From UHGV virus genome UHGV-0294068: DNA of 12,821 nt. One strand, written 5' to 3'. This stretch comes from a virus. The notes beneath the pieces are model-generated. The model was not told the DNA's origin. It did no database searches and was given only the letters and a program-made list of their open reading frames with translations. Made by a program: the position numbers and the translations under genes. Positions 7,847 to 8,431 of the stretch are shown in pieces (the stretch's first letter is position 1; the number at the start of each line of letters is the position of its first letter).

Positions 7847-8431
7847 ATGAAAAGTATCCAGGACGTCCGCAGGCAAAATCTCAACGACTTGATCGACCGT
7901 GAATTCAATGGTGTTCAGACGCGGATGGCTGAAAAACTTGGAACTCAGGCAAATCTGGTAAACCGCTGGGCTCTTGGCAAGAAGGTTATCGGCGACCAGG
8001 TTGCGCGAAAAATTGAAGCTGCCGCCAATAAACCCCGTAACTGGCTTGATATCGATCGCTCGCTTTCTCAGGAAGGTTTTCAGCCTGTCGGACCAAGCGA
8101 CATTGGTCAACTGGCGGCTCACAACCTGGAACGCTGGATGAGCGAAAGCCGCGACCTTTCAACGCAGGGAAAACTTCACCGCGCATCCGGCGTCGCCCAG
8201 GTAACAATCAGCCGCCTGTTAAACAATGAGGTCAGCGTTTCCATTTCCACCCTGGAGAATGTTGCATCCGCATTTGGGCGTCACGGATATGAATTACTGA
8301 TTCACCCGCACGACCCCGCGACTATCAACTATGACCGCTCGCGCTACGCATTGTTACCTGAAACAGAGAAGGCAAAGATCGAAAGTTACATTGAATTTGT
8401 CATCAACCAGAACGAAAAAAACAAACAATAA
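7847..8431 (+). CDS. Prophage repressor (cI position) with tandem XRE-type HTH domains and no LexA-like peptidase domain
   Basis: 194 aa; first HTH around residues 10-65 (QTRMAEKLGTQANLVNRWALGKK), second around 95-160 (ASGVAQVTISRLLNNE); no Ser/Lys autoprotease-like C-terminus; followed by a terminator. Confidence 0.7.
   Translation: MKSIQDVRRQNLNDLIDREFNGVQTRMAEKLGTQANLVNRWALGKKVIGDQVARKIEAAANKPRNWLDIDRSLSQEGFQPVGPSDIGQLAAHNLERWMSESRDLSTQGKLHRASGVAQVTISRLLNNEVSVSISTLENVASAFGRHGYELLIHPHDPATINYDRSRYALLPETEKAKIESYIEFVINQNEKNKQ

Follow-up and report, generated by a model that had tools for sequence, protein, structure and literature searches.

A prophage repressor that lacks a self-cleavage domain raises the question of how the prophage can be induced. 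This question is posed by the gene rep, which is located in the window analysed here, i.e. the whole 12,821-nt stretch of DNA from UHGV virus genome UHGV-0294068. An earlier note, made from the sequence, had described the gene product as an immunity repressor with two XRE-type helix-turn-helix (HTH) domains in tandem and no LexA/S24-like C-terminal domain. It had reasoned that induction would need an antirepressor or another route.

The repressor gene and its genomic context

The window represents the early region of an E. coli prophage of the phiV10/epsilon15 type (genus Uetakevirus). A stretch of 1.2 kb around rep has 99% identity to phiV10 and 96–98% identity to a dozen related coliphages. 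The rep region was found in 540 of the 5426 complete E. coli genomes, i.e. about one in ten carries it, and the closest match among the complete E. coli genomes spans 84% of the window and is 98.8% identical. The Rep protein is identical at 194 of 194 positions to phiV10 p40, to ORF21 of phage vB_EcoP_ZX5 (ZX5), and to RefSeq WP_000836290.1. Around this identical repressor protein, the prophage differs from phiV10 and ZX5 in its mosaic structure.

When ZX5 ORF21 was overexpressed, free phage disappeared, the lytic cycle was blocked, and the endolysin and holin transcripts were decreased by 99.99% and 99.97%, respectively (PMC9782041). The assignment of rep as the immunity repressor gene is borne out by this identity with a protein known to block lytic growth, and the window contains no better candidate for the true repressor. 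The rep product is the immunity repressor of a phiV10-type E. coli prophage and belongs to the SPC32H Rep family. Its gene is in the classical cI position, i.e. it is divergent from a cro-like gene and is followed by a terminator and then by the early-left operon, which comprises recombination genes, an xis-like gene, a methylase gene, and the integrase gene. The immediate surroundings contain the following features:

7421–7440, minus strand: terminator-like hairpin 3′ of the cro-like gene (annotated terminator in phiV10)
7462–7692, minus strand: cro-like gene of 76 aa, transcribed away from rep (ortholog of phiV10 p41; matches PHROG 35, ‘transcriptional repressor’, at E=2.6e-12)
7718–7746, minus strand: putative P_R-like promoter of the cro-like gene (TTGTTA, 17-bp spacer, TATTAT; 9 of 12 consensus positions)
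7847–8431, plus strand: rep, immunity repressor (ORF of 194 aa, ATG start)
8452–8471, plus strand: intrinsic terminator of rep (8-bp stem with 6 G-C pairs, T run; annotated terminator in phiV10)

No tRNA genes and no Rfam families were found within the window. Repeats around rep other than the operators described below look like chance matches.

Elsewhere in the window, the following ORFs were noted:

3857–4384: ORF of unassigned function (no Pfam match)
4446–5054, minus strand: Cys-rich ORF, 202 aa (weak HNH_3 and zf-HIT matches, below the Pfam cutoffs)
9036–9242: MarR-like winged-helix ORF
9239–10060: separate PD-(D/E)XK nuclease
10057–10938: RecT

At the place that corresponds to the separate nuclease and RecT, phiV10 has a single annotated RecE-RecT fusion, and the recombination module is therefore mosaic. 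The Cys-rich ORF lies between the DUF1064 gene and the ORF at 3857–4384; it probably represents an inserted mobile HNH endonuclease. DETEC-S566, the closest complete-genome relative, has an extra gene for an AntA/AntB-family antirepressor at 25459–26109, flanked by the DUF1382 gene and int. The window lacks an insert at this position (12288–12483).

Domain organisation and lack of a cleavage module

The whole Rep protein has a Pfam HTH_3 match (E=1.2e-9), and the GenBank note for phiV10 p40 reads ‘two helix-turn-helix motifs (PF01381)’. Three parts of the protein were also scanned separately. The middle domain (residues ~106–147) reached 26.9 bits for HTH_3, above the cutoff of 23 (E=4.9e-6), whereas the N-terminal 77 residues had sub-threshold matches to HTH_3 (16.1 bits, E=0.012) and to a YdaS-like family (E=3.7e-4). 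Of the two XRE-type domains that had been claimed, the middle one therefore stands in Pfam terms and the N-terminal copy falls short of the cutoff. Yet residues 1–75 are matched by PHROG repressor families at 1e-10 to 1e-11, and in the alignment with the Rep protein of Salmonella phage SPC32H, these residues correspond to its N-terminal DNA-binding domain. An internal duplication of the HTH was considered and rejected, as the two domains did not align with each other in BLASTP. A single-sequence AlphaFold2 model of Rep (pLDDT 44.9, pTM 0.22) was unusable and was given no weight.

Pfam searches for a Peptidase_S24/LexA-like domain were negative at E≤1 with the whole protein and at E≤10 with its three parts, and Ala-Gly and Cys-Gly dipeptides occur nowhere in Rep. 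The last 42 residues match no Pfam family. The ~42 residues that remain after the second HTH do not suffice for an S24 domain. At the level of the protein sequence, the claim that Rep is devoid of an autocleavage module is thus confirmed, and we therefore propose that RecA does not cleave Rep.

A homolog of known structure

Residues 1–190 of Rep align with residues 2–197 of PDB 5D50 chain A, the Rep protein of SPC32H, with an E-value of 4e-42 and 41% identity (phmmer). A second structure, 5D4Z, comprises residues 92–198 of SPC32H Rep. All three parts of the protein align without large gaps, and the identities are 54% for the N-terminal part, 34% for the middle part, and 45% for the C-terminal tail. 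The parts of Rep, all on the plus strand, are:

7847–8056 (residues ~1–70): N-terminal DNA-binding domain (alignment to SPC32H Rep)
8108–8302 (residues ~88–152): middle XRE/HTH_3-type domain (Pfam HTH_3 and alignment)
8303–8428 (residues 153–194): C-terminal tail (aligns with SPC32H Rep)

According to PMC9986798, the N-terminal domain of SPC32H Rep binds DNA, the middle domain dimerises, and the C-terminal domain serves for tetramerisation and for binding of the antirepressor Ant. PMC9638917 describes SPC32H Rep on DNA as a tetramer, in which the DNA-binding domains that are paired on one palindrome stem from different dimers, and reports that tetrameric Ant binds two Rep dimers and thereby breaks the Rep tetramer. 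The review PMC7380047 cites Kim & Ryu 2013 for the SPC32H Rep/Ant mechanism. By analogy, the clearer of the two HTH-like domains of Rep would be a dimerisation domain and not a second reader of the operator, and the last ~40 residues would be the counterpart of the tetramerisation and Ant-binding domain. The earlier note had envisaged a dimer on a 17-bp operator; the operator is real, but the active form of the solved homolog is tetrameric.

Operators are distributed over the phage genome

The motif TTACC-N5-GGTAA occurs in the window at 18 sites with up to two mismatches, compared with an expectation of 3.4, and none of 200 shuffles reached 18. Six of the sites are exact and three have one mismatch. 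The motif is usually extended to ATTACC...GGTAAT, so that the proposed operator length of 17 bp is upheld. The operators and the promoters associated with them are:

906–920 (1 mismatch) and 924–938 (exact): operator pair at the start of the small-terminase gene, 18 bp apart
5408–5422 and 5470–5484: second exact operator pair, 62 bp apart, between the replication P gene and the DUF1064 gene
5491–5464, minus strand: promoter-like site TTGATA-16-TAAAAT, the spacer of which contains the operator at 5470
7392–7406: isolated operator-like site with 1 mismatch, located between the cro terminator and the next rightward gene
7729–7743 (1 mismatch, within the spacer of the promoter on the cro side), 7760–7774 (2 mismatches), and 7777–7791 (exact): the three sites of O_R, with spacings of 31 and 17 bp
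8489–8503 and 8551–8565: the exact operators of O_L, 62 bp apart, bracketing P_L
8523–8551: near-consensus promoter P_L of the early-left operon, TTGACA-17-AATTAT

The O_R of epsilon15 is likewise made up of three sites, which are spaced by 17 and 30 bp. The GenBank record of epsilon15 annotates equivalent operator sites as ‘repressor’ protein_bind features, including the one at the small-terminase start. The phiV10 genome contains 14 operator motifs with up to one mismatch, compared with 0.65 expected; the equivalent of the operator-like site at 7392–7406 is at 33112–33126.

Beyond the immunity region, phiV10 has operators at positions 87, 3252, 20497, 20877, 24692, 26870, 35070, and 35132. 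Nearly every transcription unit of the phage is marked by an operator, i.e. the terminase genes, the portal operon, ant, the Bro-N gene, the lysis genes, int, and the units after cro and after P. This distributed layout is reminiscent of that of phage P1 C1.

Operator pairs with an exact centre-to-centre distance of 62 bp are found at two promoters each in the window, in phiV10 (31953/32015 and 35070/35132), and in epsilon15 (32555/32617 and 35907/35969). The conserved spacing suggests cooperative binding of an oligomer, with one Rep tetramer possibly bridging both sites.

The half-sites TTACC/GGTAA and the recognition-helix motif NLVNRW (Rep residues ~35–42) are common to the epsilon15/SPC32H and the phiV10 Rep proteins, which are 41% identical. 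Cross-immunity between Salmonella and E. coli phages seems possible.

A predicted antirepressor gene outside of the window

The earlier note had seen no antirepressor in the window, and two kinds of searches agree. A tblastn search of the window with SPC32H Ant, phiV10 p24, two Bro-N proteins, one AntA/AntB protein, and one ORF6N protein gave a best E-value of 1.8, and Pfam scans of the window ORFs found no antirepressor family. The only LexA boxes (CTGT-N8-ACAG) in the window have one mismatch, and their number, seven versus 4.0 expected, is at chance level.

In phiV10, the gene adjoining the tail-fibre gene encodes p24, a ‘hypothetical protein’ of 85 aa. It shares 85% of its residues with SPC32H Ant, and its E-value against PDB 5D50 chain E, ‘Anti-repressor protein’, is 2.9e-46. 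This ant homolog is located as follows:

20543–20800 of phiV10, minus strand: ant homolog
1996–2253 of a second record and 9720–9977, minus strand, of a third record: ant homologs

A near-consensus LexA box, TACTGTGTATTTATACAGT, lies directly upstream of phiV10 ant, just before the ribosome-binding site, and is the single exact occurrence of TACTGT-N8-ACAGT in the phiV10 genome. A Rep operator is situated ~45 bp further upstream. Both the LexA box and the Rep operator are kept in phiV10, DETEC-S566, ZX5, epsilon15, and SPC32H, in which the flanking DNA has diverged. The three phages or prophages with an identical Rep, i.e. phiV10, ZX5, and DETEC-S566, all contain ant behind a LexA box. The antirepressor under LexA control that had been predicted to lie elsewhere in the prophage thus exists in every checked phage with identical Rep.

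A comparison of SPC32N and SPC32H over 601 bases yielded two differences, one of which is a C-to-A change that converts ACAG of the LexA box to AAAG. Kim & Ryu (2013) reportedly found that a LexA-box mutation makes Ant constitutive in SPC32N, which is said to be a constitutively inducing variant. The observed base change agrees with this finding.

The ant region was found in 531 complete E. coli genomes, compared with 540 for rep. In E. coli O157:H7 strain TT12B, rep and ant are 27 kb apart, as predicted from the integrated gene order, and ant is therefore expected ~19.5 kb to the left of window position 1. Judging from these relatives, the prophage from which the window stems presumably carries ant as well.

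Ant matches no Pfam family and belongs to PHROG 450 (‘unknown function’); the E. coli and coliphage records that were inspected name it ‘hypothetical’. Its degree of conservation between E. coli and Salmonella phages is 85%, compared with 41% for Rep.

Proposed mechanism of induction

Very probably, the window encodes one half of an SPC32H-type Rep/Ant system, in which a non-cleavable Rep is inactivated by an SOS-controlled Ant that is encoded outside of the window. The binding of a tetramer, the action of Ant, and the control by LexA are adopted from the literature on the homolog and would apply by analogy. In the lysogenic state, Rep tetramers on the operators would shut the early, the late, and the ant promoters. 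The N-terminal HTH domain would recognise TTACC-N5-GGTAA, both at O_R and O_L and at several further promoters. Dimers of Rep would form through the middle XRE-fold domain, and the C-terminal tail would join two Rep dimers to a DNA-binding tetramer. LexA would add a second block on the ant promoter. Upon DNA damage, cleavage of LexA would vacate the LexA box over the ant promoter, so that Ant could be made from its gene, which is predicted to lie beside the tail-fibre gene, ~27 kb from rep. Ant would then bind the C-terminal domains of Rep and thereby take the tetramer off the DNA.

Alternatives to Ant and to a single reading head

Another protein might be the true inducer in the E. coli phiV10 lineage, i.e. 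the larger Bro-N (or ORF6N or AntA/AntB) protein encoded downstream of ant, in which case the small Ant would not be the switch. The ZX5 paper names the Bro-N protein ORF4 (E=2.3e-21) as the anti-repressor, and its overexpression decreased lysogens ~1000-fold and the repressor mRNA by 75% (PMC9782041). This reading is also favoured by the annotation of phiV10 p23 as an anti-immunity protein and by the Rep operator in the interval from ant to the Bro-N gene. However, ORF4 expression in the ZX5 experiments exceeded the normal level 500- to 1500-fold, and binding to Rep was not shown in that study (PMC9782041). A search for LexA boxes upstream of the Bro-N genes found none, and the cargo gene varies among phages with identical Rep: the Bro-N proteins of phiV10 and ZX5 are only 39% alike, and DETEC-S566 has ORF6N and a YafO toxin instead. 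The small ant and its LexA box, in contrast, are conserved in all phages with identical Rep. We therefore regard a Bro-N switch as unlikely, and the Bro-N protein as at most a secondary player. The practical value of the present analysis lies in annotation, because Ant is ‘hypothetical’ in the records inspected and the one E. coli paper on the system passes it over in favour of another gene.

The Rep operator between ant and the Bro-N gene of phiV10 lies within a longer perfect palindrome at 20489–20519 (GCTTATATTTACC TTTGC GGTAAATATAAGC), which is followed by a terminator and a GC-rich structured stretch. This site may be a separate Rep-controlled entry point for variable cargo genes.

More tentatively, the small Ant could be the true SOS switch in E. 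coli phiV10-type prophages, with the variable Bro-N, ORF6N, or AntA/AntB proteins forming a second layer under Rep control, and the Ant and Rep proteins of the Salmonella epsilon15-type and E. coli phiV10-type phages might cross-induce or cross-repress. Such cross-action is conceivable because Ant is far better conserved than Rep and the operator half-sites are shared. As a whole, we consider this extended picture possible but rather doubtful.

A tandem-HTH repressor, in which both domains read DNA, so that the operator would be bound by the middle XRE domain as well, would agree with the better HTH_3 match of the middle domain, with its usual helix-turn-helix pattern GVAQVTISRLL, and with the fixed 62-bp spacing of operator pairs. 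However, all operators are two-fold symmetric with identical half-sites, as fits a single reading head, and a second conserved motif was not seen beside them. The middle domain has a net charge of 0, compared with +4 for the N-terminal domain, and the same domain dimerises in the solved homolog (PMC9986798). Two reading heads are therefore very unlikely.

Least probable of all is an inactivation of Rep that is independent of SOS, e.g. by a small-molecule or host signal, with an incidental LexA box at ant: ZX5 lysogens do release ~1e7 PFU/mL spontaneously (PMC9782041), but the LexA box is conserved across E. coli and Salmonella phages with diverged flanks, a single base in it separates SPC32H from SPC32N, and exposure of phiV10-species prophages to a DNA-damaging microcin led to 21- and 47-fold induction (bioRxiv 10.64898/2026.05.26.727859).

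Comparison with known systems

Earlier work has already covered the protein and its description as a two-HTH protein, its function as a repressor, the antirepressor under LexA control, and the structure of the complex. Rep of the window does not differ from phiV10 p40 and ZX5 ORF21, which are the identical protein. With SPC32H Rep, the subject of Kim & Ryu 2013 and Kim et al. 2016, it shares the homology over the full length, the three-part layout, the genome position, the half-sites, and the lack of S24. The similarity extends to the antirepressor, since the phages with identical Rep have a small Ant that is 85% identical to that of SPC32H, with a conserved LexA box and a position beside the tail-fibre or tailspike gene. 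The differences are the overall identity of 41% and the host, which is E. coli here.

A structural likeness of SPC32H Rep to Rco of the Bacillus plasmid pLS20, which has a TetDloop or p53-like tetramerisation domain, is proposed in PMC9986798. Both would combine an N-terminal DNA-binding domain with a C-terminal tetramerisation domain and an antirepressor partner, and Rep would differ by its additional middle dimerisation domain.

In coliphage 186 (CI/Tum) and in the Salmonella Gifsy/Fels-2 pairs, a LexA-controlled antirepressor likewise inactivates a non-cleavable repressor (PMC7380047). The likeness is one of mechanism and implies no sequence relationship, and Ant is without a Pfam family. 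Kim & Ryu 2013 reportedly describe Ant as structurally distinct from the antirepressors of 186 and Gifsy/Fels-2.

The lambda cI, P22 C2, and LexA-type repressors have the same position and role, i.e. a gene divergent from cro, a tripartite O_R, and an O_L in front of the early-left operon. In contrast to them, Rep of the window has neither Peptidase_S24 nor Ala-Gly, and it has another oligomerisation module.
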